This document shows positions 5,893 through 58,237 of a stretch of DNA of 64,000 nt, one piece after another. Origin of the DNA: a virus. The position numbers and the translations under genes were made by a program. Within the stretch, counting starts at the first letter, position 1, and every line of letters begins with the position of its first letter. The stretch spans positions 20,466-84,465 of the IMG/VR virus record IMGVR_UViG_3300045988_065177. One strand, given 5' to 3'. The notes beneath the pieces were generated by a model, which was not told the origin of the DNA, did not search any database, and saw nothing but the letters and a program-made list of their open reading frames with translations.

Positions 5893-6011
5893 TATGATTC
5901 AATAATTGCTATTTAATAAATTCGTGATTATCTAATTTTACGGGTAGGTTAATAAAACAAATTAGATTCAAAATATCCTAATAATCTGGTCTATATCCCT
6001 TTCTAACCCTT

Positions 6012-9700: not shown

Positions 9701-9891
9701 AATTATGCTGTTCTGGAGGAAGTTTAGTTGCATTATAGTATTTAACTCTTTGTAACTTCCTACTTCTTAATTCTTCCTTTATAAATGGGAGAAATTCTTC
9801 ATCAGGTAAATCAGCTATAATGACTAAAGGCATCTCTGACCTATCAAAGTTAAACGATACCTTATAACCAACTGGATCTAGGTTCTGAATT

Positions 9892-11322: not shown

Positions 11323-11377
11323 TCAGTTGGGGTGTCGAACACTCTTGGGCATATTATATTTATTCAATGCCTATGCG

Positions 11378-12289: not shown

Positions 12290-12394
12290 AATATAAAAAT
12301 TTACTAGTTATTATTCAACTATAATTAAAAATTTTATATATTATAAGTACTGGAGGAGTAATATTAAATTAGTGTAATTAATACGAAATTTTTA

Positions 12395-20153: not shown

Positions 20154-20170
20154 AACTATTAATTTTGGCG

Positions 20171-20242
20171 TTGCCCTACTAGGATTCGAACCTAGACTAA
20201 ATGATTTAGAGTCATCTGTGCTGACCATTACACCATAGGGCA
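20171..20242 (-). tRNA. Amber suppressor tRNA, anticodon CUA (reads UAG), derived from tRNA-Gln
   Basis: Minus-strand sequence TGCCCTA-TG-GTGT-AATGGTCA-GCAC-A-GATGA-CTCTAAA-TCATT-TAGT-CTAGG-TTCGAAT-CCTAG-TAGGGCA-A folds as a canonical cloverleaf with anticodon loop CTCTAAA (34-36 = CUA). Its D-arm, T-arm and 4-nt variable loop are nearly identical to tRNA-Gln(UUG) at 33541-33612. Confidence 0.75.
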
Positions 20243-22620: not shown

Positions 22621-22690
22621 TCCCCATTAGTATAATGCATTGCGCCTTCCTCTAAAGAAGGAGATTCTGGTTCAAACCCGGAGTGGGGAA
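22621..22690 (+). tRNA. tRNA-like element with possible CUA anticodon loop; irregular D-arm (possible second suppressor or pseudo-tRNA)
   Basis: TCCCCAT..GCG-CCTTC-CTCTAAA-GAAGG-AGAT-TCTGG-TTCAAAC-CCGGA-GTGGGGA-A. It has a good acceptor, anticodon and T arms. The anticodon loop is identical to that of the suppressor tRNA, but the D region is 2 nt short and does not pair conventionally. Confidence 0.3.
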
Positions 22691-25058
22691 CTTAGTATTT
22701 GAGGACTACAGCTACTTGTAGGCTCTATTTGCTGTTAAGGACTATAATGGGTACGCCCAGAGACTAATGCAGAGCATCTCTTATACCAAACAGTATGCTC
22801 CTTGATACTGGAGAGATGTCTTATCGAGAGATAAGGCAAAGTATTGTGAGATTATACACTATATAATCGAAAATAGCCATTTGGCTATAGGCACAGGAAA
22901 GTTCTGAGACAATTGTGAGGCACAGCGGTGCCTCTACTCCTAAGATAAGAACAACCTTTACGTGGTTTAGGAGATAAGTAAGCTATTCAAGCTGAAACTA
23001 ATAGTTCTAGTAATAATTAATAAAAATGTTTATCATGGAAATTATCAAGATTAAAGAACAGTCTATCAATGCAGAAGAATCTAAGCTCTATAAGAAAATG
23101 TTAGATTCTCTAGGAGTAATCTACGAGACAGAGAAAATTAAGAAGGAGCAAATAGATGTTCCTATCTACGTTCTATTTGAAGAGCTAGATGTTAGGGCAA
23201 ATAATGCTTTAAGGTCTGTTACTAATGACGTAACCATAACTCTAAGTACTTTCGTTAAACAGTATTCAAAGAGAGATATACTAAGAGTTAGAAATGTAGG
23301 AAAGCATACATTGACTCTAGTAGTAGAAGCTTTTAGAAAATTTGGATACGAATTAAACTGAGAATTGGAAGTCCTTCGCCCTTTGCTGGCTTAGAAGTAA
23401 AACAGCACTTTTAATAATTTAATAGATAGTAATTTATGATTGTAGATACGATGACAGGTAAAGATATTGTCAGGGAATTTAACCGCGATATAGACTCAAT
23501 AGATAAAATTGCAGAAAGAATGGCCGTAAAGAAAAGGCGAATACTGTTGAAAATGAAAAATCAAATGACTTTTCCACACTTTGGAGAAATAACTCAGATG
23601 AAAGTTGGAAATAACAGATATTATTTAGTATGGAAATGTCTAAGTAGAAATAGTTTAAATTATACGGTATTTACTAAATGTGGCAAAAGAATATATGCTT
23701 ATTCTACTGATACTACAGTACTGGAGTTTACACGTCATTTTTTAGATAGGTATAACGAGAGGTTTAAAATTGTAGGACTAGATAATATACTAAGGAATAT
23801 CTGCAAAGATTTTTGCTTAGGAAAAATATTTGATTCTACAGTTGTCACAGATACAGGACTATTTATAATGACTGAAACAGACTACGGATTCAGTGCAGTT
23901 ACATGCATGAACGATTTATCGAGGAAAAACAATTTAGAAAGATTAGAAAAAATAAGAAAAGGTCTTTCTATATTAGACCCTAAAAGTAAAGATGAAGAAA
24001 TAATGCAATTGTATAAATTGGGTTTATATGAAGATCCTCTGATGAGTCTTTGAAAATTAAGACGAAACTACCTAGAAATAGGTAGTCAGGATTAAAAGAA
24101 AAAGAAAATGAGAAAATTCAACAGATTACACTGCGATTCAACTGTTCGCGCAAGATTTACAGATTCATGGGGAAGAGTGATAACTCTCACTGGAACCCAC
24201 GCCTTCGAGTATACCATTCACATAGAAGGCATCAGAACAGTTACAGAAACATTTGTGAATGGAAAATTAGCAAGAAAAGATTTAACGAATTAAAAAGAAA
24301 ACCATGAGAAAAAGATTCAAAGCTGCGAGAATAGCATCTTCAGACAACTACGAATTGTCTAGAAGAATACATTCTCAGTATTTAAAGAGATGGCACAATG
24401 CTAACATCGAGGTAATCACTGAAATTACCACATCATTAGTAATCAAAGAACAAAAATACATAAGAGTATTTGGAGAATTAATTCCGATTTCGGAAGAGGA
24501 ATTGAGAATCCATAACACTCTGATAGTTGAGAACTAATATGGAAGATTTATTAGCAATTGTTAGATGGGGCATTACTTTACCCGTTTGGTTATTAGAACA
24601 TATACTGAAAGGTTTAACTTTCATTGTTCTAGTATTTGGACTTGTCGTTATGGCGATTTTATTCCCGCTATTTCGATCTACTTGGCGTCGTACAGGCGAT
24701 TCTCGTGTATTTAAGTATGCAACAAAGTGGAGAGGAAACTATCCACTAACAAAAAAAGTATTTAGTTTATGGCAATAATGAGAAGAATCACCGAAATAAA
24801 CGGTGAGATAATTATGGTGGAAACTATGATTATTGTAGGCAATATAATCCTTTGTACAATTCATATTAATGGAGAGCTAGTTAAGTATGAAATATTATCT
24901 GTTGGACAGTTATGGGAAGATCGTTAGGTCTTTCCGTAGCTGGTCAGAAGCTAACAAATTCAGAATAGTGATGAATAGATTGGATTGGAGGATTGTACCA
25001 TGACCTATATAGTAGTATTCATAATATTAATTATCATTTGGAAGGCAATTGAAGAACA

Positions 25059-26070: not shown

Positions 26071-26143
26071 GGGGCAGTAGCTTAATGGATAAAGCATCAG
26101 ACTTCTAATCTGACGAGTGCGAGTTCGACTCTCGCCTGCCTCA
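26071..26143 (+). tRNA. tRNA-Arg(UCU)
   Basis: GGGGCAG..TCAGA-CTTCTAA-TCTGA..CGAGT-TCGACTC-TCGCC-TGCCTC-A; anticodon loop CTTCTAA. Confidence 0.7.
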
Positions 26144-26293
26144 CTTAAATATTTAATTTTAATCTTTATGAAATAGTGCTTAAATTGTGGGAAGGAGATT
26201 CCCAACAGAAATAAATATTGCAACAACGTCTGCTAGTTAGAATATCAACATAAACAAAAATATAAGCTAATTTTAGAGGGAGACGAGTCTATC

Positions 26294-26554
26294 ATGAGAG
26301 CCAACTACTCTCCTTCAATATTTAGAGAAGATATTCTTAACGAACAAGATGGTATATGTGCAATATGTGGTTGTAAACCAGAACATAATGGAAAGCCATT
26401 AGTGTTTATAGTTGACCACATAGACGGAAAAGCTTCAAACAATAGAAGAGATAATTTAAGATGCATTTGCCCTAACTGCGATTCTCAGTTGGATACTTAT
26501 AAATCTAAAAATAAAAATAGTGATAGAGTATATTATAGAGAGAATCATAGGTAA
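26294..26554 (+). CDS. HNH endonuclease (small)
   Basis: CAICGC...HNGK..VDHIDGKASNN..DNL..ICPNCDSQ, an HNH beta-beta-alpha-metal motif with flanking Cys pairs. Located between tRNA-Arg and tRNA-Lys. Confidence 0.55.
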   Translation: MRANYSPSIFREDILNEQDGICAICGCKPEHNGKPLVFIVDHIDGKASNNRRDNLRCICPNCDSQLDTYKSKNKNSDRVYYRENHR

Positions 26555-26655
26555 GGTCAATTCCATACAAACAGGTTATTAGCTCGAGAAATAACCTTCT
26601 GTAAACAGTCAGACGTTGGGAGCTTATAGCCCTACGATAGTGAGGCTAAATTAAT

Positions 26656-26729
26656 GACTCCGTAGCTCAGTTGGTTAGAGCACCAAACTTTTAATTTGGG
26701 GGTCCTGGGTTCGAATCCCAGCGGAGTCA
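26656..26729 (+). tRNA. tRNA-Lys(UUU)
   Basis: GACTCCG-TA-GCTC-AGTTGGTTA-GAGC-A-CCAAA-CTTTTAA-TTTGG-GGGTC-CTGGG-TTCGAAT-CCCAG-CGGAGTC-A. Confidence 0.75.
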
Positions 26730-26797
26730 CAGGCAATTTTCTTGAATTTTTCTTTTTCTTACGCAGTGAGTATTTGTTGTGAAACACATACTTACAC

Positions 26798-26870
26798 CTG
26801 GATATAGTTCAGTAGGTAGAACGCTGCATTTGGGATGCAGAGGTCGTGTGTTCGAGCCACACTATCCAGA
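26798..26870 (+). tRNA. tRNA-Pro(UGG)
   Basis: CTGGATA-TA-GTTC-AGTAGGTA-GAAC-G-CTGCA-TTTGGGA-TGCAG-AGGTC-GTGTG-TTCGAGC-CACAC-TATCCAG-A. Confidence 0.75.
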
Positions 26871-27079
26871 CGAAGTAATCACCATTCACTAGTAGAATAG
26901 ATGATGTCTATTGGGTGCCTACGTAGATGAATCCCTGATTACTCCAATTAACAGAGGTGAGTTCCCTTAAAATTGTTACCACGCACTAGTGCGGCTATTA
27001 GCTACTAGAGGACTTGGGGTGCCAAGAGGAAGAATTGTAGTAGCTATGTTAATTAGAACAAATCTGTTAATTGCTTTAT

Positions 27080-27162
27080 GGGAGTGCGCCAACGTTGGAG
27101 AGTTGGGCTTGACTGTAAATCAAGTGCCTATGGCTTAGAAGGTTCGAATCCTTCCACTCCCA
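27080..27162 (+). tRNA. tRNA-Tyr(GUA), type II with long variable arm
   Basis: GGGAGTG-CG-CCAA-(10-nt loop)-TTGG-G-CTTGA-CTGTAAA-TCAAG-(15-nt variable arm)-GAAGG-TTCGAAT-CCTTC-CACTCCC-A. Confidence 0.65.
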
Positions 27163-27784
27163 CAAATTTAATGAATATGTTAATAGGATTTTTAGTATTT
27201 ATTATTCTAGAAATAGCTATAATAGCTACTATAGGGTTTACTTATTTTCACGAAGATGATAAGAATTTCAAGAATTATCGCAAAGGAAAGAATAGCTGAT
27301 TTGTTAGACTTAAATTTCGTGTCTAAGATAGAATTAAGACAGGGAAAACAAGGATTTAATAATCCTGCTATTTGTAGAGTAGAAATCTATTTACTACTTG
27401 AAAACGACAAAGAGTACTTTAATTCCAAAATGACTGATATTATGTCATGGGCACAAAAGAACAAATGTAACATTGCTTTTACTACTGCTAGTATGGCTCT
27501 CAAAGACGGATTTATTAAAGAATCTGCTTTTGATGATTTTAACTACCCAGTTCCTAAAAAGTATAAAGCATTATGTGATATTTATTCAGCAAGTTACTTT
27601 AATCTATTTAATAGAAGAAAGCTATAATGGAAGACAAGTACGAAGGATTATCTGATGAAGAACTTAAAGAGATTTTCGAAGATATGGAAGCAGACTATTG
27701 GATAGACTACTATCAGTCTCTTTGCGAATGAAACGCAGCAGTTGGCTTTCGGAATCTCTGTCTTAACAAAATGAGTCCGTAATT

Positions 27785-27868
27785 GGGATTGTAACCGGTA
27801 ATTGGTAGCCGCGCAGACTGTAAATCTGCTCTCTTTTGAGACTGGAGGTTCGAGTCCTCCCAATCCCA
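27785..27868 (+). tRNA. Second tRNA with GUA anticodon (Tyr-like), long variable arm, irregular D-arm
   Basis: GGGATTG..GCAGA-CTGTAAA-TCTGC-(14-nt variable)-GGAGG-TTCGAGT-CCTCC-CAATCCC-A. The acceptor, anticodon and T arms are perfect. The D region does not fold canonically in my hands. Confidence 0.45.
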
Positions 27869-28824
27869 CACATTTTAATTAATTAGATTATGACAAAAGA
27901 AGAAGCAATTAGAGCTATGTCTGAAGGAAAGAAAGTAAGGCATAGATACTTTAGTAAAGACGAATGGGTAACTATAAATTCCAGCGGACTATATGAGTTC
28001 GAGGATGGTATAAAAGTTGACTCATCGTTATTCTGGATGGACAGACAGGATTCCTATTGGAATGATGGATGGAGCTTAGTTTAACTTTAAATAAGAATAA
28101 AAATGACAACGTATGAATACGGAGAAGGATACTTACCAGAAATCTGGTACTAGTGTAGTATTTCAAAAAGAAATTAAGCAGTGTAGAGAATGTCCGCACT
28201 GCTTAATTGTTCCTGACCCAGATCCTAATGACTGGTTCAATGATGACGACGAGAAAGCGCTCTGTAAGGAGTCTGAGAATAAACTAATTGAAGGAATGTT
28301 AAGACCTTACGAAAGGGTATTAATTCCAGATTGGTGTCCATTAAAAACTAATAAATAAAATGAATAAAATGAATAAAACAAAAGCTTGCCTTGAAATAAC
28401 TTTAGAACAGGCACGTAAATGGTATGAGGGTGGCAATGAAGACTTGAAAAAATTAGCTCTTACCGCTTTTAGCGAAGAAGTTCTAGTCCCTTCTCTTGGA
28501 GAAATATTAGAATCTGAAAAGGATTGGGATGTGCTATTTTTACCTTTAGGGATATCAGAGCAAACTAAGTCTCTAATTTGTCTACAAATAGTAGCTAATT
28601 ACTTAAACAATGGTTGGAATAAAACAGAGAGTAACAGCGGTTATTTCCTTGGAAGGGGTTCTTCTCTATCTGGAAAGACGGAAACTGATATAAAAGGAGT
28701 GTACGTCGTTATGCATCAAAACGTAAAATATCCAGGTGTTGTTTATTTTAGAACTGTAGCTGATGTACAGAAAGCGGTGAAGATACTAGGAAAGAAGTTG
28801 CTGCCGCTATTCGAATAATTTGAT

Positions 28825-28898
28825 GGTGTTATTAGTTCAGTTGGCAGAACGCTACATTGTGGCTGTAGAGGTCAGCGGTTCGAGTCCGCTATAACACC
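28825..28898 (+). tRNA. tRNA-His(GUG) with encoded G-1
   Basis: G(-1)-GTGTTAT-TA-GTTC-AGTTGGCA-GAAC-G-CTACA-TTGTGGC-TGTAG-AGGTC-AGCGG-TTCGAGT-CCGCT-ATAACAC-C. The extra 5' G pairs with C73, which is the His identity element. Confidence 0.75.
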
Positions 28899-28928
28899 CT
28901 AATCATGTTTTATTAAATATTATAACGA

Positions 28929-29489
28929 ATGAAAAAGACAATTGAAATTGAATGTCCAGATGGTTATAAACCCATCTATAATGCCGAAACTGGCAATGTT
29001 GAAATCGTTCCAGAAAACATTATGGGACGGATAAGAACCTATGAGGATGCTGTAAACTATCTAGGGTGTGTTACTAGAGATACTATTTACTACAATAGAT
29101 CTGTAAATTCTCTAGCTAAGTTGCAGACAGTCTTGGATGCGCTAAATGAAGGCCACAAGTTCAATCTGTTAACTGGTACTATATGGTATCCCTGGGTTCG
29201 CTTCTTTAGAATGAAATCAGTTCCGAAGGATGCAGAAGTCATTGGTCACTTCCGTTATCAGGGCGAGAAATTCGCGTTGGTGGGCGGCCACGCGTATGAT
29301 GGCGGCGATGCGGGTCTCGGCTCTTTCTATTCTAACAATGGCGTCGGCGTTGCCGATTCCGCTGTCGGGATGCTTGCGTGCAAATCTGAAGAGATTGCCA
29401 AATACGTATCAACCCAGTTTGGAAAGCTAGTGTTCGATGCTTGTTTTGCAAGACATTTCAAGGGTGAAGAATTTGAATGGCTTGACTAA
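28929..29489 (+). CDS. Second DGR target protein (contains VR2); small CLec-like C-terminal domain
   Basis: ...GEKFALVGGHAYDGGDAGLGSFYSNNGVGVADSAVGML.. is homologous to the tail-fibre VR1 region (LVGGRAHYGGTAGLGYFYSGTDVGNATSLVGFR). A GC-rich island at 29270-29370 lies inside an otherwise AT-rich gene. Confidence 0.6.
   Translation: MKKTIEIECPDGYKPIYNAETGNVEIVPENIMGRIRTYEDAVNYLGCVTRDTIYYNRSVNSLAKLQTVLDALNEGHKFNLLTGTIWYPWVRFFRMKSVPKDAEVIGHFRYQGEKFALVGGHAYDGGDAGLGSFYSNNGVGVADSAVGMLACKSEEIAKYVSTQFGKLVFDACFARHFKGEEFEWLD
29279..29370 (+). repeat. DGR variable repeat VR2 (remote target, opposite strand, 29 kb from the TR)
   Basis: Plus-strand sequence aligns with the reverse complement of the TR (251-348). 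I found 13 differences, all at TR adenines (for example gcaAtgcAggtctcAgctAtttcA.. versus gcgAtgcGggtctcGgctCtttcT..). Confidence 0.65.
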
Positions 29490-29968
29490 TGAAAAAGTTC
29501 CTTGTAATTATGCTTGCTATGCTCTGGATGAGCGTAGCAGCTTTTTCTCAAATAACTATATCACAAGAAGACTATGATAAGTTGCCTGGTGAAACTAGAA
29601 CTCAAATCGAGAAGATAACAACAGAGAAAGCTATAAAGGGTGAAATCAAGGAAGTTTCTGAGTATGCAAATCTTGGTAAGGAAATTGGCGTAGCAGTCAA
29701 TGAAACCTTAAAAGCAGTTGAAGATTCAGCCATAAGAATAGCAGAATCCGACCTAGGACAAACAGCAATAACTATCGTAGTGTGGAAACTCCTCTATAAG
29801 GAGATAGCCGGAATTGTAGTAGGCACCATACTATTAGGAATATCAGTATTTATGCTATTAACTGGTAGAGGTAGACTATCTAAAAACGATGAAGATGCTG
29901 GAGGTTGGATAAGTGTGGTAGGAGGAGCTGTATTCTTTATATCTTCAATGATTTGTATATTTGGCTGA
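29489..29968 (+). CDS. Membrane protein (signal peptide plus 2 C-terminal TM helices), immediately downstream of the VR2 gene
   Basis: MKKFLVIMLAMLWMSVAAFSQ... and hydrophobic C-terminal segments. Confidence 0.45.
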   Translation: MKKFLVIMLAMLWMSVAAFSQITISQEDYDKLPGETRTQIEKITTEKAIKGEIKEVSEYANLGKEIGVAVNETLKAVEDSAIRIAESDLGQTAITIVVWKLLYKEIAGIVVGTILLGISVFMLLTGRGRLSKNDEDAGGWISVVGGAVFFISSMICIFG

Positions 29969-30063
29969 GGAGCAGTCCAGGCTATAGGCTGGTGTATTCT
30001 AGCTATATTCTGTGTAATATTGCTTCTTGGTATGATTTTTGGCTAGTCATAAGACTAGCTTTT

Positions 30064-30152
30064 GGAAGGGTGGCAGAGTCAGGTTTATTGCAACGGTCCT
30101 GAAAACCGTCGGGCGGTAACACGTCCCCAGGGTTCGAATCCCTGTCCTTCCG
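30064..30152 (+). tRNA. tRNA-Ser(UGA), type II
   Basis: GGAAGGG-TG-GCAG-..-ACGGT-CCTGAAA-ACCGT-(long variable arm)-CAGGG-TTCGAAT-CCCTG-TCCTTCC-G; G73 discriminator. Confidence 0.65.
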
Positions 30153-30157
30153 CAAAT

Positions 30158-30231
30158 ACGTCCGTACTCAAGTGGTTTAAGAGGATAGTCTCCAAAACTA
30201 TTATTCCTAGGTTCGAATCCTAGCGGGCGTG
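30158..30231 (+). tRNA. tRNA-Trp(CCA)
   Basis: ACGTCCG-TA-CTC..GAG-G-ATAGT-CTCCAAA-ACTAT-TATTC-CTAGG-TTCGAAT-CCTAG-CGGGCGT-G. Confidence 0.65.
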
Positions 30232-30254
30232 CTCATTTATTAATAAATTAGATT

Positions 30255-30485
30255 ATGAAAAAGTTAACAATTATTTCATTAGGACTTGTGCTACTATTTA
30301 GTTGTTCGGGTTCAACTAGTGAACTAGAAGCTACTAGGAATACCAGAGATGGAATTATTCCATTTGGTGCCGCAGTTCACTTTAAATACAAGAATCATCA
30401 GTACATTAAATTCACCGAGGGAAATGGGAACTACAAGGTTGTAGGAGTAGTTCATGACCCAGATTGTAAATATTGTAAGAGATGA
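30255..30485 (+). CDS. Small lipoprotein (Bacteroidetes-type signal, Cys after LLFS)
   Basis: MKKLTIISLGLVLLFSCSGS... Confidence 0.4.
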   Translation: MKKLTIISLGLVLLFSCSGSTSELEATRNTRDGIIPFGAAVHFKYKNHQYIKFTEGNGNYKVVGVVHDPDCKYCKR

Positions 30486-31000
30486 GCGAAGTGTATTATC
30501 TTTTGGCAGCCATTTCATATGGCATTTTTCTAGTTCAATTCATTTTATCTTGGTTCGGTGGAGACACCGACTTAGATGTTGATTTAGATGGAGAACTAGA
30601 TATGAACGTGAGTGATATTGTCTCATTTAAGGGATTAATCCATTTTATAATGGGAGCTAGTGGATGGCTTTGTGTTAAGCAATCTGTATCTCATTCTGTA
30701 GAATGGTATGATTATCTAATCGCATTAGTATGCGGTATTCTTTTCGTGGTTATACTTTACTACTTATATAAACTCTGTTTAAAACTCCAGCATCAAGTTA
30801 TTCCAGAAGAGGGTGAAGCCTTGATTGGAAGGGTTGGAATTATCACAGTTCCTTGTGAAAACCATTTCTTCATTACTATTGAAGTAAATGGAGGTTCTGA
30901 GGAAATTGTTGCCTATCCAGAAGTTCCAAAAATGGGATATATGGTTGGTACTCGTGTGGTAATTTCTAAATTTGAGAATGGAAAGTATTATTTTAACTAA
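30482..31000 (+). CDS. NfeD-like membrane protein (short form), partner of the SPFH/flotillin protein
   Basis: N-terminal TM helices followed by a C-terminal beta-barrel-like segment GRVGIITVPCENHFFITIEVNGGSEEIVAYPE...GTRVVISKFENG. Translationally coupled to the downstream flotillin gene. Confidence 0.5.
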   Translation: MSEVYYLLAAISYGIFLVQFILSWFGGDTDLDVDLDGELDMNVSDIVSFKGLIHFIMGASGWLCVKQSVSHSVEWYDYLIALVCGILFVVILYYLYKLCLKLQHQVIPEEGEALIGRVGIITVPCENHFFITIEVNGGSEEIVAYPEVPKMGYMVGTRVVISKFENGKYYFN

Positions 31001-31016
31001 AAAGAATTTTTAAAAG

Positions 31017-39893: not shown

Positions 39894-39966
39894 TCCCCTG
39901 TAGTTTAGTTGGTCAGAACACTAGATTTGTAATCTTGTGACCTCGGTTCGAATCCGAGTGGGGGAT
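39894..39966 (+). tRNA. tRNA-Thr(UGU)
   Basis: TCCCCTG-TA-GTTT-AGTTGGTCA-GAAC-A-CTAGA-TTTGTAA-TCTTG-TGAC-CTCGG-TTCGAAT-CCGAG-TGGGGGA-T. Confidence 0.55.
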
Positions 39967-40705
39967 CTATTATTAATTAGATTAATTATATGACTAGATT
40001 AGAAAAGTATTTATTAGCAACAGCTTCCGAGATTATCGAAGCTGAAACCACTGTTTCTCGTTATTTTGTTATAGGTAATGTAAAAATACGAGTATCAGAC
40101 CATTGGAGTAAAAATAGTGATGCGGATTTGCACGTTCTTGTTCCTTATAATGGAGGAACTAAGTATATAGTAACTACTAAAGACAGTCCTGGAAAATTTC
40201 TAATTTGGAACGCTAACCAAATCAAGGATTTTATTCCATCATTGCAAATAATGAAAGGACTTAAAGAGTCTGTTACTTCTGCACCAAAACCGAAAGATTC
40301 TGCTGTACAAAAGATTCAACTGGCTTTAAATAATACAAATCCAGATGCAAATTCCTTAGAATTTGATGGAAATATTATTGAATCCAGATTGAAGGAGAAA
40401 AATCTTACTGCAAAGCAGAGAGAAGTATTAAGAAGAGCTAAATCAACTTGGGATATTTCTCAGATTGGAACATTACCTAGCATGGTAAAAGTAGACCTAG
40501 GGTTAAGTAATGGTTCTATAAATGAGGATGTCCAGATTTTCTTAACTTGTACTTCATTGACTTACAATGAGTTTTTGAACATTTACAAGATAATTGTTGT
40601 AGATAATCATAAGACTCCAACTATTAAATTACTGCAAGAGGCTTATAGTCTGATTGCGTAATCAGGATACAAGATTTTCATACGGGTTCGAATCCCGTTA
40701 CTATG

Positions 40706-45585: not shown

Positions 45586-46402
45586 AGAAAAAGAAATGTT
45601 CTTTCTTATTAATCTATTTTAACAGAATTTTATAGGAAGTCACAAATTTTTATTATATCTATGTGTATATAAAAATATACATAATGAGTAAAAGAAAATG
45701 GACTGATGAACAACTGATTGAGGCTGTTAAAACTAGTTTATCTTATGCAGAAGTAATGAGAAAATTAGGACTTAAAGCAGCTGGCAGTAACTATGATACT
45801 GTTAAGAACAAGATTAAAGAATATAATTTAGATACCTCACATATGACTGGTAAAGTTTGGAATCAAGGAGAACGATACAAGCCAGTTAAAACTTCCAGAC
45901 CTTTAGAAGAAGTTTTAGTAGAAAACTCTACATGGGTAAATACTAATAATTTACGTAAAAGACTTCTTAAGGAAGGTATCAAGGAATATAAATGTGAGTG
46001 TTGTGGCAGGACTGAGTGGTTAGGAAAACCTATAGCTCTAGAACTGCATCATGTAAATGGTATAAAAGATGATTTAAGGATAGAAAATTTACAACTTCTG
46101 TGTCCTAATTGTCATGCCTTTACTGATAATTATAGAGGAAAGAACAAGGGTATGAATGCCCAAGAGGAAACTCTTGGAGTAGAAGCAGGCTAATTCGGTG
46201 AAGGTATCAGCCCTATAAATGGTAATAACGCCGAGCTAAGTTAAAAAGAATAAGATAACAAGAACCTCTGTTAAGCTAGAACGTAGCTTCATACGGATGA
46301 ACTTACTTCTTTTTATAAATGTGTAGAGACTATACACCTGCAACCTAAGTCAGAATTGATATGGTTAAGACATAGTCCAAGCAATCTTTTATAGATTGTA
46401 TG
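45586..46402 (+). mobile_element. Group I intron (about 817 nt) carrying an HNH homing endonuclease ORF
   Basis: Lies between the two halves of tRNA-Leu(UAA). The 5' exon ends in U and the intron ends in G. It contains ORF 45663..46193. Confidence 0.55.
45663..46193 (+). CDS. HNH homing endonuclease (intron-encoded)
   Basis: ...ECCGRTEWLGKPIALELHHVNGIKDDLRIENLQLLCPNCHAF..., an HNH motif with Cys pairs. The N-terminal domain WTDEQLIEAVKTSLSYAEVMRKLGL is typical of intron HEG DNA-binding modules. Confidence 0.65.
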   Translation: MYIKIYIMSKRKWTDEQLIEAVKTSLSYAEVMRKLGLKAAGSNYDTVKNKIKEYNLDTSHMTGKVWNQGERYKPVKTSRPLEEVLVENSTWVNTNNLRKRLLKEGIKEYKCECCGRTEWLGKPIALELHHVNGIKDDLRIENLQLLCPNCHAFTDNYRGKNKGMNAQEETLGVEAG

Positions 46403-50109: not shown

Positions 50110-51126
50110 ATGAAGAGAATTTTTAGTATTATTTGTTTGTGTTTAATGTGTGCATTTGCTAGCGCACAAGTTGTTGAAACTGGAAGTTTGAAAGATAACT
50201 GGTATGTTTCTGGTAATGTAGGTACTACAATTTGGGACAACTCAAGAAGTTGGGCTGAACCTCGTGATGTATTAGTAAATATTGCGGTGGGTAAAGAAAT
50301 TACTCCTATCTTTGGCTTGGAGTTAGACATGACGGCTGGAATGAATCAAGGAAATAAGACATTCTTTGATTCACATAATTTGACAGCTAATGTTACTACT
50401 AATCTTACTAACTTGATATGTGGATATAACGGAGATAGACGTCTGTTTGAACCTATATTAATTGTTGGTGCTGGTTGGTATCATACTTATGGAGATGTCT
50501 ATAATAATGTATCCGCCCGTGGAGCCGTTAGATGTAACTTTAATATCTCTAATAGATGGGCATTAAATGTTACTCCTGAGTATATGTTACTTCCCAAGAC
50601 TTCCCCTCTGAATCATGAGTTTAATGTCTATATTGGTGCTACCTATCGCTTTAAGTCTAGCAAGGGGGACTTTCCAATTATGAAGTTGTATAGTGATGCC
50701 GAGGTTGAAAGCCTAAACGCTTCTATTAATGAGTTGAGAGCCAAGAATGAGGAACTTATGGCTCGTAAACCAATAGAAATTGTTAAGACGGACACAATCG
50801 AAATTACTAAAGTAGAGCTTTTGACTCCAAAAATTCAATTCCTTCAAAATTCTTCAGAGATTTCTAAAACTTCCAATGTGGCTGTCTCAGAACTAGCTTC
50901 CTATATTTCTAATAGTGGAAAAACTTATGTGATTGAGGGATATGCTTCGGAAGAAGGTCCAGAAGAGTTTAATAATAACCTTGCTGTAGCTAGGGCAGAA
51001 TCTATGAAGAAGGCTCTGATTAGCTATGGTGCTCCAGAGGATAAATTGGTTGTTAAGGGATGTGGAATTACCACTGAATTTGGAGATAATGAATTTAATC
51101 GTATCGTAATAATTTCCGAACAATGA
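50110..51126 (+). CDS. OmpA-family outer-membrane protein (beta-barrel plus C-terminal OmpA peptidoglycan-binding domain)
   Basis: Signal peptide MKRIFSIICLCLMCAFASAQ. C-terminal ...TYVIEGYASEEGPEEFNNNLAVARAESMKKALISYGAPEDKLVVKGCG. Confidence 0.55.
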   Translation: MKRIFSIICLCLMCAFASAQVVETGSLKDNWYVSGNVGTTIWDNSRSWAEPRDVLVNIAVGKEITPIFGLELDMTAGMNQGNKTFFDSHNLTANVTTNLTNLICGYNGDRRLFEPILIVGAGWYHTYGDVYNNVSARGAVRCNFNISNRWALNVTPEYMLLPKTSPLNHEFNVYIGATYRFKSSKGDFPIMKLYSDAEVESLNASINELRAKNEELMARKPIEIVKTDTIEITKVELLTPKIQFLQNSSEISKTSNVAVSELASYISNSGKTYVIEGYASEEGPEEFNNNLAVARAESMKKALISYGAPEDKLVVKGCGITTEFGDNEFNRIVIISEQ

Positions 51127-51563
51127 AGTATAAGAAAAAAGTAGCTTGGTTAAAAGCAAAGCAAGCATGGTGGGATAAACAAGGAAAAGACTTTCAGGCT
51201 GCAACTACCAGACCTGGGTCTATTAAAACTCGATAAATCATGATTGCGTTTATAATTGTGTGCATAATGTTTGCCGCGTATATTTATTATGACCCGTATG
51301 TAGATATTACAGAGGATAATGTACTACTATGGTATAATAAAAGCGGCAATAGAGAATATATTATTCTATGGTCGAGAAAAACTTAATTAAGGCATTTGTT
51401 GCCGTTCTATTAATCGTTGTAATTTACAACGTCAGCTTATGGTTATTATCCGAATCATTGTATGCTGCAAATATCTTGGGGTTGTTACTATTACTAGTGG
51501 CAATCCCAAGTTTAGTTTATAGGATATTCAAATATATTAAGAAACATTATTTAAATAAGGAAA

Positions 51564-52391
51564 ATGAAGACAATTATTAAGCTTTTGTGTGTATTAACTT
51601 TGGTGTTTGGCTTGTCTAGTTGTGGCTATGAGAGAATTGATGCTGGTTACGAAGGCATTAAGGTGAATCTATACGGAGACGGTAAGGGAGTAGACGATGT
51701 GTCTCTTGTTACTGGCGCGGTGTGGTATAATCCTGTTACTACGGCTGTATATGAATATCCTACATTCGTACAGACTGTGGACTATCCTCCTTTCAGTATT
51801 AATGCTAAAGATGGGTCATCATTTACTGTAGACCCTACAATTTCTTTGAAGATTGTTGACGGGAAATCACCAGAAGTATTTAAGAAGTATAGAAAGGAAG
51901 ATATTGTAGAGGTAATTAACACTACTTTGTATAACTACGTAAAGAATGCTTTTCGTATTCAGCTGAATAACTATACTACTGATGAACTAGTAAGTAAACG
52001 TGAGGAGTTTGAGAAGTCTATAGAAGATAGACTGTCAAAGGAACTTTTGGCTGAAAACTTTCAGCTTGAACAAATGACTTCTGGTCTTCAATATCCACAG
52101 ACGCTAGTCAATTCTATTGATGCTAAGAATGCTGCAATTCAACAGGCTTTGAAGGCAGAGAATGAAGTTAAGACTATTGAGGCAGAAGCTAAAAAGAAAG
52201 TAGCAGCCGCACAAGGAGAAGCAGAAGCTCTTAAGATTAAGGGTGATGCAGAAGCTGAATATAATAGAAAGATTTCAGCATCTTTGTCAGTTCTCATAGT
52301 TCAGCAGGATATGATTAAGAAGTGGGACGGAAAACTTCCTACTTATGGTCAGGTTCCCACCTTATTTAAAGACGTAGCTAATAACAAATGA
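51564..52391 (+). CDS. SPFH/band-7 family lipoprotein (second SPFH protein in the window)
   Basis: Lipoprotein signal ...LVFGLSSCGY. SPFH-like core ..SSFTVDPTISLKIVDGKSPEVFKKYRKEDIVEVINTTLYNYVKNAFRI...TDELVSKREEFEKSIEDRL.. followed by an AEAEK-rich coiled coil. Confidence 0.5.
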   Translation: MKTIIKLLCVLTLVFGLSSCGYERIDAGYEGIKVNLYGDGKGVDDVSLVTGAVWYNPVTTAVYEYPTFVQTVDYPPFSINAKDGSSFTVDPTISLKIVDGKSPEVFKKYRKEDIVEVINTTLYNYVKNAFRIQLNNYTTDELVSKREEFEKSIEDRLSKELLAENFQLEQMTSGLQYPQTLVNSIDAKNAAIQQALKAENEVKTIEAEAKKKVAAAQGEAEALKIKGDAEAEYNRKISASLSVLIVQQDMIKKWDGKLPTYGQVPTLFKDVANNK

Positions 52392-53245
52392 TGTATCTAG
52401 TAATATGCACTGTGATGGTAATCATCACGGTGCTTATTTTGAAAGATACCCATGTAACCGTTTATTACAATGGGTATAGCAGAAGTGTGGCACATATAGA
52501 AGAAGACTATGACCTTAAAGTTCCAGTGTGGCTAGTTTTAGTAATACTAATCCTAGGATTTATCCCAGTACTGAACATTATGCTATACACAGTAGGATAT
52601 TTATTCTATATAGTTCATGCTGTGTGGAATCCAGATAAGTTGTCTGGATATACACATAAGTTCAATCTAAGAGGAAATAATTTTCTAACTAGAATAGTAA
52701 AGAAGATATGGAAATTCTTAAATGTATGTGTATAACACTGAAACATCTTAGGCGAATACTTAGACATAAGTTTTGGGTAGCTTATTACTGTTTTCAGTTA
52801 GGTCTATACAAACAGGGTATCTTGCACGACTTATCTAAATTCGGATGGTATGAGTTCTCTCGTTCTGTAAAATTTTACGATGATGACACATCTCCCTTAA
52901 ACAAGGAAAAAGAAATTCTAGGATATTCTAGGTCTTATTTACATCACAGAGGAAGAAATCCACATCATTACGAGTACTGGGTAACTAAGCTAGACATTGG
53001 AGGTGTTCCAGTGAAGATGCCTAAAGAGTATGCTCTGGAACTAGTATGCGATTATCTGGCTGCCGGTAAAGTATACAATGGTAATAGTTTTCAAGGAGAA
53101 TATAATTGGTGGATTAAGTATATAAGTTCTCCCAGAGCTATCCATCCAGAAACGAAGGAATTTATCACTCAGTGCTTTAAGAATTTAGCTAGTGGTAAAG
53201 GCATGAAAAGTTTATTAACAATTAGTTATTAAAATAATTTTTAGA

Positions 53246-54793
53246 ATGGAAATAATTAATGCAACAGATGGCTATAAATTGGGCCACCACAGAATGTACC
53301 CAGAAGGTACTGAACAAGTTTACAGTAATTGGACTCCCAGAAGCAACAAATACTTTCCAGAAGCCACTGAAGGTTCTGTAGTATTCGGAATCCAGTATTT
53401 AATTAAAAGGTATTTGATTGACGAATTTAACAAGAATTTCTTTGGATTGCCTAAAGAGAAGGCTGTAGAAATGTTTTATCGAAGAGTTCACAACTTCGTG
53501 GGAATTGAATCTGTAGGGTATAGACATATTGAAGCCTTGTATGATTTAGGTTATCTTCCTATTCGCATTAAAGCGTTGCCAGAAGGTTCAGTATGCCCTA
53601 TCAGAGTTCCCATGATGACTATTACTAATACAAAGTCAGAGTTCTTCTGGTTAACTAATTATTTAGAGACTTTAATTAGTTGTACTCTGTGGATGCCTTG
53701 CACTTCTGCTACTAGAGCAAGACTCTATAAGAAGGAACTTAAAAGACATGCAGTACATACTGGATTTCCAGAAGATGTGAATCTGGATTTCTTGTGTCAT
53801 GACTTCTCCATGAGAGGAATGGCTGGTTTAGAAGCCGCTATTATTTCTGGTATGGCACATATGACTTCGTTTGTTGGGAGTGAAACCATCCCAGCTATTG
53901 CTGCTCTGGAAGAATACTATGGTGCAAATTCTGACAATGAATTAATCGCTGCTACTGTTCCAGCTACAGAACATTCTGTAATGTGCGCTGGTGGGGAAGA
54001 GGATGAACTTCAAACCTTTAAGAGATTAATTAATGAATTGTATCCATCTGGCTTCGTTTCTATAGTTTCTGATACTTGGGACTTTTGGAATGTTATTGAA
54101 AACTTCCTTCCCAAACTAAAGAAGGATATTATGGCTCGTGATGGACGTGTAGTTATTCGTCCAGATAGTGGAGACCCAGTCGATATTATCTGTGGTTTAA
54201 GAACTAATCCTCATTTCCATACTAGGATGAAAGAGGGTAAGTATTATTGTTGCTATGCCCCATTTAACGATGATGCTGAGTATGTGGAAGTTTCAGAAGG
54301 TCAATACTATGGTGCTTATTATATGCTTGGTAAGATTTTTGGATGGAATACTACTTCTAAGAATTATCGCTATCCTAGTACGAAAATAGGTTTGTTGTAT
54401 GGTGATTCTATCACTCTTGAACGTCAGAAGCAAATCTATATGCGACTTGAGAATGCTCATATGGCGGCTTGCAATCTTGTTCTAGGTGTTGGCTCATTTT
54501 CATATCAATACGCAAGTAGAGATGGCTTAGGTTTTGCAATTAAAGCTACTGCTTGTGTAATTAATGGAGAATTGAAAGAAATATTCAAACATCCTAAGAC
54601 TGATGATGGAACTAAGAACTCTTTGAAAGGTCTGATTTCAGTACATAAAGGTGAAAATGGTATTTATGCTACTGACCAGTGTACTAAAGAGGAGGAAAAT
54701 ACTGGTTTATTGCAAACAGTCTTTGAGAACGGAATCCTGAAGAAAGGCTTTACTTTGCAAGAAATCCGGAATAATATTGATAAGAGTTTGTAA
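53246..54793 (+). CDS. Nicotinamide phosphoribosyltransferase family protein (NadV/NAMPT-like; possibly Namat of NARP1)
   Basis: N-terminal INATDGYKLGHHRMYPEGTEQVYSNWTPR closely matches the NAMPT signature (..[26 protein letters not shown]). 515 aa. Confidence 0.65.
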   Translation: MEIINATDGYKLGHHRMYPEGTEQVYSNWTPRSNKYFPEATEGSVVFGIQYLIKRYLIDEFNKNFFGLPKEKAVEMFYRRVHNFVGIESVGYRHIEALYDLGYLPIRIKALPEGSVCPIRVPMMTITNTKSEFFWLTNYLETLISCTLWMPCTSATRARLYKKELKRHAVHTGFPEDVNLDFLCHDFSMRGMAGLEAAIISGMAHMTSFVGSETIPAIAALEEYYGANSDNELIAATVPATEHSVMCAGGEEDELQTFKRLINELYPSGFVSIVSDTWDFWNVIENFLPKLKKDIMARDGRVVIRPDSGDPVDIICGLRTNPHFHTRMKEGKYYCCYAPFNDDAEYVEVSEGQYYGAYYMLGKIFGWNTTSKNYRYPSTKIGLLYGDSITLERQKQIYMRLENAHMAACNLVLGVGSFSYQYASRDGLGFAIKATACVINGELKEIFKHPKTDDGTKNSLKGLISVHKGENGIYATDQCTKEEENTGLLQTVFENGILKKGFTLQEIRNNIDKSL

Positions 54794-54810
54794 TGAAGTT
54801 CTAAAATATA

Positions 54811-55623
54811 TTGAAGATGAAATTATTAAACTTAATTAACTTGGACAAGAGTGAGATTAAGTATAACCTCACTAGATTTCCTGACGGAGAACCTCAGATA
54901 AGTTTTTCCGACGAATTTGATAGGAAGGATTCAGTAAAGGTTATATGTAGAATTACTTCTGCTGAAGAATTATTTATCCTAACTCAAGTCGGAGACATTC
55001 TTGACAGACAAGAGATTGAGTGGGATTTGTTTATTACCTATCTAATGTCTATGCGTATGGATAGAGTAATGGACTTTAACCGCCCATTTTCTCTGAAAAT
55101 AGTTTGCAGTATTTTAAACACTATGAATTATCGTTATGTTACGGTTTTGGAACCTCACTCTGATAGAACAGAAAAACTTCTAGGGGATAGATGCGAAGCG
55201 CTTGAATTTAAACATAATCTTGCCACCCAAACTAATATTGTATTCCCAGATGCTGGAGCTTACCAAAGGTACAAAATTCTCTCTAATAATTGGGGACATA
55301 TTGTGTTCAATAAGGTGAGAGATTTGGAAACTGGTAAGATTAAGGAGTTTTCCATAGGAAGAGAGGTTAATTGTTATTATTCGACCTTTACTTTTATTGA
55401 TGATTTGTGTGATGCTGGAGGAACATTCCTTGGAGAGCTTAAAGTTCTTAAAGAGAGATATCCAGACTCTAAATTCGAGATTATAGTTTGTCATGCTGTA
55501 AATATCGAAGGCTTGGTAAAGTTGTGTAACAATTTTGATCATGTTATAATAACTAATTCATATTGTGATTACGGATATAAGCCTAGTAATAATAATTTAA
55601 CAGTGATAGATGTATGCGGATAG
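54811..55623 (+). CDS. Ribose-phosphate pyrophosphokinase (Prs)-like protein (possibly ADPR-PP synthetase Adps of NARP1); TAG stop immediately followed by in-frame TAA
   Basis: ..LTRFPDGEPQISFSDEFDRKDSVKVI.. matches the Prs N-terminal motif (F.DGE..V...E.VRG.DV.I). It is an adjacent, co-oriented neighbour of the NAMPT-like gene. The gene ends ...ggatagtaa. Confidence 0.55.
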   Translation: MKMKLLNLINLDKSEIKYNLTRFPDGEPQISFSDEFDRKDSVKVICRITSAEELFILTQVGDILDRQEIEWDLFITYLMSMRMDRVMDFNRPFSLKIVCSILNTMNYRYVTVLEPHSDRTEKLLGDRCEALEFKHNLATQTNIVFPDAGAYQRYKILSNNWGHIVFNKVRDLETGKIKEFSIGREVNCYYSTFTFIDDLCDAGGTFLGELKVLKERYPDSKFEIIVCHAVNIEGLVKLCNNFDHVIITNSYCDYGYKPSNNNLTVIDVCG

Positions 55624-58237
55624 TAATTTAAAAAGAGATGGTAATTGAAGGTCCATTTTACAGGTTAACCCCAATTAACGATTCATCTCCTCGTTTCGAC
55701 TTGGAGTTGTTATGTGATATTGGTGGTAAAAATCCGAGAAAAGAGTTCAAGGTAGTAGGATATGGATTCCTGCTAGAATCTGCAGTGGAAAGATGTATCC
55801 ACTATGCAGTTAGAAGAAAATTCGGAAAAGATGAAGTTGTAACTTTAGGTAAGTACTTGGATGAGTTTAAAAAAGAAAAGAAGGAGATTGAACTCCAAAT
55901 CTACGGAAGTACAAGAAATTCTAGCGGAGAGGCTGAATAAACTTTGTAGGTTTCTAGATGAAGAGTACGATATTAATACTGGAGGGTGTTGCTATGTAGC
56001 ATATTGCCTGGCAAAACTTCTTAGTAAGGACAAATTCAAGTTTAGAGTAATAATATACGAAGATTATGAGTTAGAAGATAGATTTAGTGAAATTTATGAA
56101 AGTCACTATCATTACGCTATTGGCATCGGAAATTATACAATAAATTCTGCTGAATGTGATGAGGACGAAAGCTTTTGCAGAAATATATATTATAATGTAA
56201 GAGCTTCTGAAATTCTGGACCACTATAAAAATTGTAGCTGGAATGAATGTTACAATTCAGCAAAGAATAAGTTTATCTTTAGAACTATTCAAGTATTTTA
56301 TGACGATCTTACGGAAGACTTACGAGAAGGATAAACAGATTGTATATACACATGACAAGTTTATCTACTGTAGTTCGGTCTATCAAATGTGGGGATGGGG
56401 AGCAGCCCTTATGGAAGAGAAGTATTATGCTTCTGATAAACCTATTACACTTAAAAAGAAAAATTTAATCTCTGTAAAGAGAAAAAACTATTCATTGCAT
56501 AGATTTTTCGAATTACAGTTTGCTCCAGAAGAATATTTAATTAATAACGGTTTTAAAATTGTAGAAAATGAAACAGGATGTAGCTGAGTATTTGATTGAC
56601 TCGTTTGTAGACTTTAAGGGTGAGGAACACAAAATTGTAGCGTGTGCTTTGAGCCAATCTCCAGAAGAGAGTGAGGATGGTTGCAAACTTGCAGTAGGTT
56701 GGGTAAACGAAATGGACGAATTTGTCTGTGTAGATGATCCAGATTACGCAGAGGTTTGCAGAGTCATATCTGTTGGTATCAGTGTATGTCACCCAACTGA
56801 TACGTTTGACAAGGAGAGAGGTAAAGCTAATGCCTACAATAAAGCTTTGCACGACCCTAAATGTCCTACTATCTATACTAGAGATAGAGGAGTAGCTAGT
56901 AAGACTTTGGTAAAGGCTTTCTTGAAACAAGAGGTTAATTTCCTTAAAGAGAATCCAGAGAGAATTATCAAGGGTTACAATCAGATGAAAGCTCGTTTCG
57001 ACAAAAAGCAAGCTCTAAAAGCTAAAATGGAAGGTCTCTCTGATAATGAGAAACTTGTTGTGAAACTGGCAATGAAGGAAGGTGTGGATGTAGTCGGATG
57101 CGTTAAGCTCGTAGAGGAAGCTAAGGCTGCAGGTATTGAGATAAATGAACAAGACTAAGTTTTGCTATATTTTAATTATCATAATGGGATTAATAATTAT
57201 ATATTTGTCTGTCCCTAAGAGAGATAGTAATCCTAGCACTCCTAATGTGCAAGAGATTGTGAAGGATTCTATCATTAGGGACAGCATTTATATAGTTAAT
57301 GATTCCATTGTTGAGAAAATTAAATATATAGACAAGGAGTATGATGAGAAAGTGTCTACTATTATGTCTAGTTCTGATAGCATCAATTTGTGCTTTTTCT
57401 CAGAATACATCGACCGTTACAATAACCAGCGAACAGTTAAAGACAACTAATCTGATATTTGCTGAACATCAGAAATTGTCCGAAACTGTTCCTTTATTGA
57501 AGAGCCAAATAACTAATTTAGAACTTATAAACAAAAGTTGGGAGAAAACGGATTCTGTTCGCAGAGTCCAGTTACTGTATTATGGAAACATAATTGAAGA
57601 TAAAAATAGATCAATTGAAGGTCTTAATAAGTCTTTAAAGAAAAAGCAGAACGTAATCAAATATGGAGCTGCTGGCTCATGTGTATTAATATTATTATGC
57701 CTATTACTGAAGTAATGTTTAAGGACAAAGATGGTTTTCACTATAAACATCCTGAACGTAGCTGTACTAGGTGTAAGAACTATCCCTGTTTGCCAAATAT
57801 GGACAAACTACAAGGGGACTTTGCCTCTTATGGTTGCAGGAAGTTCGAGGATATTAATACCTTTGAGGTGTGGAAACCAAAGAAGTAACTTACCATGTTA
57901 AGTTTGTAGCTGAATGTGAGGACGGAATGGGTTATGCAAATTATGTCTTTGAACGTCTAGAATATGATAATCTAGATTACAAAGACATAATGTGTGTTCG
58001 ATTTCCGAATTGGAACCAGTGTTCTATGAAATTAGGTGATGTTGGATATGTATCTCTAAGATATGTAGAAGAAGGCATCGATAAATGGTACGATGGTACA
58101 GATTTCGTTCCATATAAGGAGACGAATATAATTTTCCTGAAATTTATTCATGAAAAACCGTCTCTAGAATGTGGACAAATATTATTAGATTAACATTAAA
58201 ATTAGATGAACTATGAAGTATTTTTAAAGAATAATTT

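Follow-up and report, generated by a model that had tools for sequence, protein, structure and literature searches.

A predicted two-gene NARP1 cassette in a TAG-recoding gut phage distantly related to crAss-like phages

Introduction

Some phages carry NARP1, a pathway that reconstitutes nicotinamide adenine dinucleotide (NAD+) with two enzymes: Adps, from the family of ribose-phosphate pyrophosphokinase (Prs), and Namat, from the family of nicotinamide phosphoribosyltransferase (NAMPT). NARP1 was reported in 859 phages, corresponding to 4.3% of those analysed; a Namat gene lay near 97% of the genes in the Adps clade, but hardly ever near bacterial prs genes (10.1101/2024.02.11.579819). Here we describe an adjacent pair of genes from these two families in a stretch of 64,000 nucleotides of a viral genome (IMG/VR record IMGVR_UViG_3300045988_065177, positions 20,466 to 84,465), referred to below as the window. 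On the evidence of the sequences, we consider it very probable that this pair is a working two-gene NARP1 cassette.

The structures 9W5X/9W5W contain the Namat of phage SPbetaL1 with nicotinamide and with NAD+ (PMC12774641, NAR 2026). The feature that discriminates Namat from Nampt is an adenine "selectivity clamp", which consists of a helix and a variable loop (PMC12774641). The consensus for the clamp helix is GSX-phi-X-phi-X-phi-TRD, with X aromatic; in the loop, position 3 is occupied by Arg, Lys or Tyr, and a stacking residue is present as well (PMC12774641).

In the survey cited above, Supplementary Table 1 lists the Adps of phages cr111_1, DAC15 and DAC17 with the entry "Namat within 10 genes: Yes", and Supplementary Table 2 records a crAss-like Namat as Adps-associated (10.1101/2024.02.11.579819). 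The text of the papers that could be searched contains no discussion of NARP1 in crAss-like phages.

Results

Organization of the gene pair

A first-pass annotation, made from the nucleotide sequence alone, had proposed adjacent, co-oriented NAMPT-like and Prs-like genes. Both genes were found at the positions given there, on the plus strand, and the peptides quoted from them are present. The Namat gene (53246..54793), recognized from the list of open reading frames (ORFs), Pfam matches, phylogenies and the clamp motif, encodes 515 aa and ends in TAA. The Adps gene (54817..55623), recognized from phylogenies, the lysine K166 and the AlphaFold fold, encodes 268 aa from an ATG and ends in TAG. 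The 270 aa originally assigned to the Prs-like protein are obtained when translation begins at a TTG at 54811; the ATG at 54817 is the more probable start codon, since a matching Met begins the closest homologues. The Namat ATG follows the stop codon of the upstream ORF after 13 nt, 23 nt separate the immediately adjacent Namat and Adps genes, and 11 nt lie between the TAA that follows the Adps gene and the next ATG. With these short spacers, the pair is packed into the surrounding block of plus strand genes.

The NAMPT-family protein

The NAMPT-like protein matched the Pfam families NAMPT_N and NAPRTase and has the two-domain architecture of NAMPT-type enzymes. When all PDB sequences were compared, the best match was SPbetaL1 Namat (9W5X/9W5W; 504 bits, E 4e-150), while mammalian NAMPT reached about 228 bits and Xanthomonas Nampt 197 bits. 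The protein is 49% identical to the Namats of SPbetaL1 and FADO, 39% identical to that of Bas63, and 28-31% identical to NadV and NAMPT; relative to SPbetaL1 it carries an insertion of about 27 aa between residues 317 and 356, in the stretch that separates two conserved blocks. Neighbour-joining phylogenies were calculated from 17 and 20 sequences. The split between Namat and NadV/NAMPT received 100% bootstrap support, and the three validated systems fell on the same side as the window protein. The Namat clade contained the sequences from SPbetaL1, FADO, Bas63, Bas62 and from Staphylococcus, Pseudomonas, Vibrio ICP1 and Mycobacterium phages, in addition to the clade of the window sequence.

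The clamp helix reads GSFSYQYASRD (G416-D426), in which positions 3, 5 and 7 are aromatic and Ser takes the place of Thr in the terminal TRD. The clamp loop, PRSNK35-Y36-F, is identical to that of FADO (SNKYF), and its Lys-then-Tyr arrangement is one of the published configurations. At the helix position, NadV proteins (KVP40-like, T4-like and from Caulobacter phages) and rat NAMPT have GGGLLQ..RD or GGALLQKLTRD, and their loop is short or unrelated. The core residues D8, Y10, F187, R190, A240, H243, R305 and D307 are kept. H243 is the catalytic His, and F187, R190, R305 and D307 correspond to F189, R192, R306 and D308 of SPbetaL1 Namat, in which mutation of R306 abolishes activity (PMC12774641). 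One nicotinamide-binding residue differs, in that E213 stands for D215 of SPbetaL1. Both Glu and the clamp are present in 120 of the 120 closest Namat clusters, where the change from Thr to Ser in the clamp is fixed as well; the fixation of Glu and Ser favours a working variant over decay. By sequence, motif and phylogeny, the NAMPT-like protein is assigned as a Namat.

The Prs-family protein

The Prs-like protein had no match to Pfam. On the curated Prs model TIGR01251 it scored 63 bits, below the cut-off of 113, in an alignment that spans model positions 19-287 of 309 and covers both domains; on the remaining equivalog and subfamily models for Prs it scored at most 58 bits, with cut-offs of at least 296. 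E. coli Prs reached 423 (TIGR01251) and 533 bits on the Prs models. Further TIGR01251 scores were 118 for Bas62, 106 for SPbetaL1 Adps, 96.5 for FADO and 39 for cr111_1. Two of the three reference Adps (SPbetaL1 and FADO) thus also fall below the cut-off, and the third, from Bas62, a sibling of Bas63, barely passes.

In a search against PDB, SPbetaL1 Adps matched canonical Prs only. Since no Adps structure was found among the PDB structures, the assignment of the Prs-like protein was made by phylogeny. Neighbour-joining trees were calculated for 19 phage proteins and six canonical Prs, namely those of E. coli (from the genome) and of B. subtilis, B. pseudomallei, S. solfataricus, T. volcanium and M. 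jannaschii (sequences read off PDB alignments). The split between Prs and the Adps-like phage proteins was recovered with 99% and 100% bootstrap support, with the window protein on the Adps side. Together with cr111_1, the Bacteroides phage DAC15 and gut contigs, the window Adps forms one group (100% bootstrap), which is sister to SPbetaL1, FADO and Staphylococcus sequences (82% bootstrap) and is nested among the validated Adps from SPbetaL1, FADO and Bas63. Pairwise scores of the window protein were 92 bits with Bas63, 82 with SPbetaL1 and 71 with FADO, compared to 50 with the Prs of S. solfataricus, 41 with that of B. subtilis and 33 with that of E. coli.

The window Adps contains the FPDGE, RxDR and DDxxxxGGT motifs. 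Its K166 aligns with K194 of E. coli Prs and with K162 of SPbetaL1 Adps, an enzyme that is killed by mutation of this residue. In all 19 Adps-like sequences, His-Ser (H114-S115 in the window) is found where Prs has His followed by Ala, Lys, Asp or Glu. All 19 also lack the Thr of the Prs ribose-phosphate loop (DTGGT or STGGT) and have Phe after the loop, which in the window reads DDLCDAGGTF (residues 195-204). Among the 120 closest Adps clusters, the loop pattern DDLCDxG[GT]TF occurs in 108, and K.R[DN]..[TG]G around the catalytic Lys in 113. From the phylogenies and these residues, the Prs-like protein is placed on the Adps side of the family.

The AlphaFold model of the window Adps is of high confidence (predicted local distance difference test 89.5, predicted template modelling score 0.86). 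When aligned by Foldseek to full-length bacterial, human and archaeal Prs, it gave template modelling scores of 0.72-0.79 over 270-300 columns. In this model, Adps is a complete two-domain Prs fold that includes the C-terminal phosphoribosyltransferase domain. The protein had been described earlier as short and without a full C-terminal domain. It is indeed short (268 aa, compared to 315 aa for E. coli Prs and 272-297 aa for the tested Adps), but the C-terminal domain is complete in both the alignment and the model; the protein is shortened at an N-terminal beta-alpha unit and at a C-terminal helix. Loss of a domain as the cause of the short length is therefore rejected. It had also been argued that a full-length, two-domain Prs would point to ordinary salvage. 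This argument is unsound: validated Adps are themselves two-domain Prs homologues, and real Adps would be wrongly discarded by it.

Predicted pathway and the possibility of classical salvage

We infer the activities of both enzymes and an anti-defence role for the pair. A host NADase defence (Thoeris, DSR, SIR2-HerA, SEFIR or similar) would cleave NAD+ to ADP-ribose and nicotinamide. With ATP, Adps would transfer pyrophosphate onto the free ribose C1'' of ADP-ribose, which yields ADPR-PP. Namat would grip the adenine of ADPR-PP by an aromatic clamp composed of F418 and Y422 together with K35-Y36 from the partner subunit, and would swap the pyrophosphate for nicotinamide, so that NAD+ is formed in one step.

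The same two families could also support classical salvage, in which the Prs-like enzyme makes phosphoribosyl pyrophosphate (PRPP) from ribose-5-phosphate, the NAMPT-like enzyme makes nicotinamide mononucleotide (NMN) from this PRPP and nicotinamide, and the host finishes NAD+ through an NMN adenylyltransferase/deamidase route. In its favour, the two proteins are members of the Prs and NAMPT superfamilies, and models of the general families do not distinguish between the two readings. However, a full adenine clamp in Namat would serve no purpose with PRPP. The Adps-like protein lies across a split with 100% support from bacterial and archaeal Prs and below the Prs cut-offs; the loop Thr of Prs is Ala in the window and Thr in none of the 19 Adps-like sequences; and purified SPbetaL1 Adps yielded no product in a PRPP-synthesis assay. 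We regard classical salvage as quite improbable. The earlier proposal that the pair belongs to NARP1, and not to a salvage pathway of Prs and NadV, is borne out by the PDB ranking, the clamp motif, the two bootstrapped phylogenies, the catalytic residues and the adjacency of the genes.

Several observations nonetheless weigh against assigning the pair to NARP1. The first concern the family models and trees. PHROG 619 does not discriminate, as E. coli Prs scores higher on it (193 bits) than the window protein (180 bits). PHROG 448 and NCBIfam NF006629, on which the window Namat reaches 520 bits (cut-off 405), score NadV as well as Namat and are equally uninformative. The Adps and Namat trees are distance-based and drawn from small samples, and some of the Prs sequences are partial. 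The PDB search with SPbetaL1 Adps offered canonical Prs only as structures for comparison, and the positions described here as typical of Adps come from our own comparison of 19 Adps-like sequences with six Prs, rather than from published determinants. Clade membership in itself is no proof of Namat identity: the protein in PDB entries 9ke8/9keo, named a nicotinamide phosphoribosyltransferase, groups with the Namats of Bacillus phages with 100% bootstrap support (391 bits to the window protein; best phage match 55%), and its clamp helix, GAQTYQRNTRD, has a single aromatic residue and lacks the aromatic motif.

Other observations concern the enzymes. The window Adps is highly divergent from the tested Adps, with only 28-31% identity. 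The residue replaced by E213 matters for catalysis, since D215 of SPbetaL1 Namat hydrogen-bonds nicotinamide and the D215A mutant is about 8-fold less active (PMC12774641); the swap in the window is a conservative one. In addition, Namat retains the synthesis of NMN from PRPP in vitro (PMC12774641).

Genome setting and use of TAG

On the minus strand, the region from 0.4 to 13.4 kb contains hardly any long ORFs in the standard code. When TAG was read as sense, a run of ORFs of 205-736 aa with 1-32 in-frame TAGs was obtained (428-13423). With TAG translated as Gln, ORFs on this strand matched the portal (7523-9733) and large terminase (9892-11232) families. The long ORFs on the plus strand, including the block that holds the pair, contain no in-frame TAG. 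A tRNA scan detected 25 tRNA genes in the window, two of them with a CTA anticodon (20170-20242 on the minus strand and 22621-22691 on the plus strand). The nearest named relatives of the terminase, at about 25% identity, are crAss-like phages and the Azobacteroides phage ProJPt-Bp1; closer matches are unclassified contigs from human faeces. Because of the CTA tRNAs, the in-frame TAGs and the relatives of the terminase, we assign the host genome of the pair to a TAG-recoding gut phage that is distantly crAss-like. To judge from the ORFs, the reading of TAG as sense is limited to the late module, as it is in some known crAss-like gut phages. The location of the pair in the early/middle block, which uses the standard code, suggests that its products are probably synthesized ahead of the late change of code.

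The Adps gene had been singled out as the only early gene to end in TAG, with TAA next to it. This holds for the plus strand downstream of 16.9 kb, where 62 non-overlapping ORFs reach 60 aa or more: TAA closes 49 of them, TGA 12, and TAG the Adps gene alone. Its 3' end reads GGA TAG TAA, and the gene is closed by a tandem TAG-TAA stop (55621..55626); reading through the TAG would add one residue and end at the TAA (ORF 54817..55626).

A scan for sigma-70 promoters gave fewer sites than in shuffled sequence, with promoters of the Bacteroidetes type lying outside the models of the scan, and the terminator-like sites were weak or intragenic. Neither kind of signal delimited an operon.

The other 23 tRNA genes, with small ORFs between them, are located on the plus strand at 26071-39967; they include two tRNA-Tyr, two tRNA-Cys, two tRNA-Met and three tRNA-Ser. 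Within this cluster, a 140-aa ORF (34512-34934, plus strand) matched PF08302, the 2H cyclic-phosphodiesterase domain of fungal tRNA ligase (32.7 bits, cut-off 23), and its obvious predicted role is in tRNA repair. Enzymes of the 2H type also open ADP-ribose 1'',2''-cyclic phosphate, the product of spontaneous ADPR-PP breakdown.

Flanking genes and related loci

The ORF upstream of the pair (52708..53232) belongs to DUF5662 (99.7 bits), and the 100-aa ORF downstream (55638..55940, orf100) had no family match. The gene order DUF5662-Namat-Adps-orf100-orf157 is common to three of the related loci (L002, L008 and L009 in our numbering). In L019/L020 and L023/L024, DUF5662 is followed by homologues of orf100 and orf157 and neither Namat nor Adps is present; the gap between DUF5662 and the orf100 homologue is about 160 nt in L023. 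The pair occurs without an adjoining DUF5662 in L010, cr111_1 and DAC15. Among the phage records, DUF5662 was found in 10 and the pair in about 1,500, and the literature searched contains no mention of DUF5662. The suggestion in the first-pass annotation that the flanking ORFs could be accessories of the pair was consequently rejected: they are backbone genes, which pair-less relatives carry in the same order. With the flanks independent of it, the pair constitutes a cassette of its own that has been inserted into the backbone. A scan for Nmnat, NUDIX, Macro and RyR domains in 53 plus strand ORFs of the window, and separately in the flanks, detected none. A megablast search with the region against 50,697 phage records returned one short match, at 74% identity.

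The order Namat-then-Adps was observed in every sampled locus of the gut/crAss clade, and the order Adps-then-Namat in 10 of 10 non-gut phages examined.

The cassette sits among early genes for replication and nucleotide handling, and its presence varies among close relatives, as is typical of auxiliary metabolic genes. These features would fit a pair whose chemistry is the same but which supports metabolism in general while the phage infects cells in the gut, with ADP-ribose of any origin being recycled, rather than counteracting a defence. Against this, in all phages tested, deletion of the pair has an effect, and ADPR-PP appears, only when an NADase defence is present, and the pathway uses up exactly the two products of defence NADases. 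A mainly metabolic role appears very improbable.

In the L010 locus (4375-6825), Namat is 94% identical to that of the window (53246-55623) and the neighbouring Adps 55%; in L009, the values are 94% and 67%. This mismatch suggests that recombination has taken place between the two genes or that the Adps allele has been replaced. Homing-endonuclease genes (Endonuclease_7, HNH and GIY-YIG) are dispersed over the early regions of this group of phages, for example at 45684-46193 in the window and at 686-1195 and 2788-3414 in L019; the one in L022 (5662-6177) sits between DUF5662 and Namat. These elements may help to shuffle the cassette.

Two close relatives have damaged copies. In L008, whose Adps is 95% identical to that of the window, the damaged copy (4893-5804) is a Namat truncated at the 5' end to 300 aa. 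In MT836666 (L002:3801-5786), an AAA-ATPase ORF runs in frame into Namat, and about 70 aa are deleted internally near the Namat C-terminus; this record is marked UNVERIFIED, and the damage may be an assembly artefact. One could read the window pair as a decaying or inactive remnant of the same kind, with the replacement by Glu, the divergence of Adps and the TAG stop as its marks. However, both ORFs in the window are intact and their catalytic and clamp residues complete, all 120 closest Namat clusters share the fixed Glu and motifs, a TAA directly follows the TAG, and the AlphaFold model is of high confidence. We find it hardly credible that the pair is a remnant.

A gene for a HAD-type protein of 142-145 aa is located between Namat and Adps in cr111_1, DAC15 and the gut contigs L009, L021 and L022. 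Copies of this mini-HAD gene were recorded at L001:5598-6029, L009:5598-6035, L021:7075-7506, L022:7707-8138 and, on the minus strand, L026:32831-33259. They share 39-87% identity with one another and contain all four motifs of HAD phosphatases (FDFDNT, LFT, KKP and LLDDR); in cr111_1 the gene is annotated as phosphoheptose isomerase. A sequence search of PDB with the mini-HAD gave no match. The window contains neither the gene between the pair nor a remnant of it elsewhere, and L010 lacks it as well. The mini-HAD may be a third NARP1 enzyme, analogous, and not homologous, to the Macro-domain protein Adpp. The fixed Glu, the long branch of the Adps group (about 30% identity) and the mini-HAD in DAC15, cr111_1 and several contigs also led us to consider that the pair of the gut/crAss clade is a functionally shifted NARP1, acting on a modified (e.g. 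phosphorylated) ADP-ribose produced by NADases of Bacteroidales, or on another pyridine base. We consider such a shift unlikely. Were it to apply, the window would represent the minimal two-gene form, and the task of the Macro-domain Adpp would have been solved a second time by the HAD protein, which is not homologous to it.

Directly upstream of the cassette, a run of envelope-type genes occupies 50110-52735 on the plus strand. It encodes an OmpA-like beta-barrel protein (338 aa), a membrane protein of 70 aa, an SPFH/Band_7 protein of 275 aa with a lipoprotein-like N-terminus, and a membrane protein of 115 aa. A second Band_7 protein, of 657 aa, is encoded at 31017-32990 (plus strand). The envelope-type run, which is unusual cargo for the early region of a phage, is kept in L008, L009 and L010.

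Discussion

A NARP1 cassette in this genome would extend a counter-defence pathway that is already characterised to uncultured phages of the human gut that form a very abundant group; in metagenomes, protein clusters number more than 1,000 for Adps-like and at least 8,000 for Namat-like sequences. It would also imply that phages of gut hosts of the Bacteroidales type are under real selection from immunity that depletes NAD+. The presence and absence of the cassette at one backbone position in close relatives provides a natural comparison for studies of host range, and the culturable relative DAC15, which grows on Bacteroides thetaiotaomicron, offers a route to testing the Glu variant of this clade and the HAD gene. 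The understanding of how NARP1 works is unchanged by these results.

Relation to known systems

The NARP2 system of Vibrio phage KVP40, composed of NadV/Nampt and Nmnat, likewise restores NAD+ with a phage enzyme of the NAMPT family. The window Namat is only 28-30% identical to KVP40-like and T4-like NadV and is separated from them by a split with 100% support; NadV has GGGLLQ in place of the clamp. A Prs-family partner is present instead of Nmnat, which was not found within the 64-kb window. Being outside the NadV clade, with an Adps alongside and no Nmnat among the 53 ORFs scanned, the pair was not assigned to NARP2.

With housekeeping Prs (TIGR01251/NF002320) and bacterial NadV, the pair shares the two-domain fold, the FPDGE, RxDR and DDxxxxGGT motifs and the catalytic Lys. 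It differs from housekeeping Prs by a score below the cut-off, the absence of the N-terminal beta-alpha unit and C-terminal helix, the His-Ser pair and the missing loop Thr; with scores below the curated cut-offs, it was not classed as canonical Prs. NARP1-AP, which adds the Macro-domain phosphatase Adpp, and the NARP1 associated with RyDEP have the core of Adps and Namat in common with the window. The cassette here is flanked by DUF5662 and the 100-aa ORF, and the scanned ORFs contain no Macro or RyR domain, so neither extended form was recognized.

The closest characterised systems are the NARP1 loci of the Bacillus phages SPbetaL1 and FADO and of the Escherichia phage Bas63 (10.1101/2024.02.11.579819; PMC12774641), which also consist of adjacent, co-oriented genes of the Prs and NAMPT families. 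The clamp helix and loop, the catalytic Arg and His, the Lys of Adps, the compact size of Adps and the clades are common to these loci and the window. In the window, however, the gene order is reversed, with Namat first; Glu replaces the nicotinamide-binding Asp and SRD replaces TRD, both throughout the clade; and the carrier is a TAG-recoding gut phage. The Crassvirales loci of the uncultured phage cr111_1 and of DAC15 fall in the same Adps and Namat clades (100% bootstrap) and share with the window the Namat-first order, the Glu and the SRD. Their Namats are 63-64% and their Adps 44% identical to those of the window. They carry the HAD-type gene between the pair, which the window does not, and named crAss-like phages are only remote relatives of the window phage (terminase about 25% identical). 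The window pair is a further example of NARP1 in a lineage in which this pathway had already been catalogued, though not discussed.

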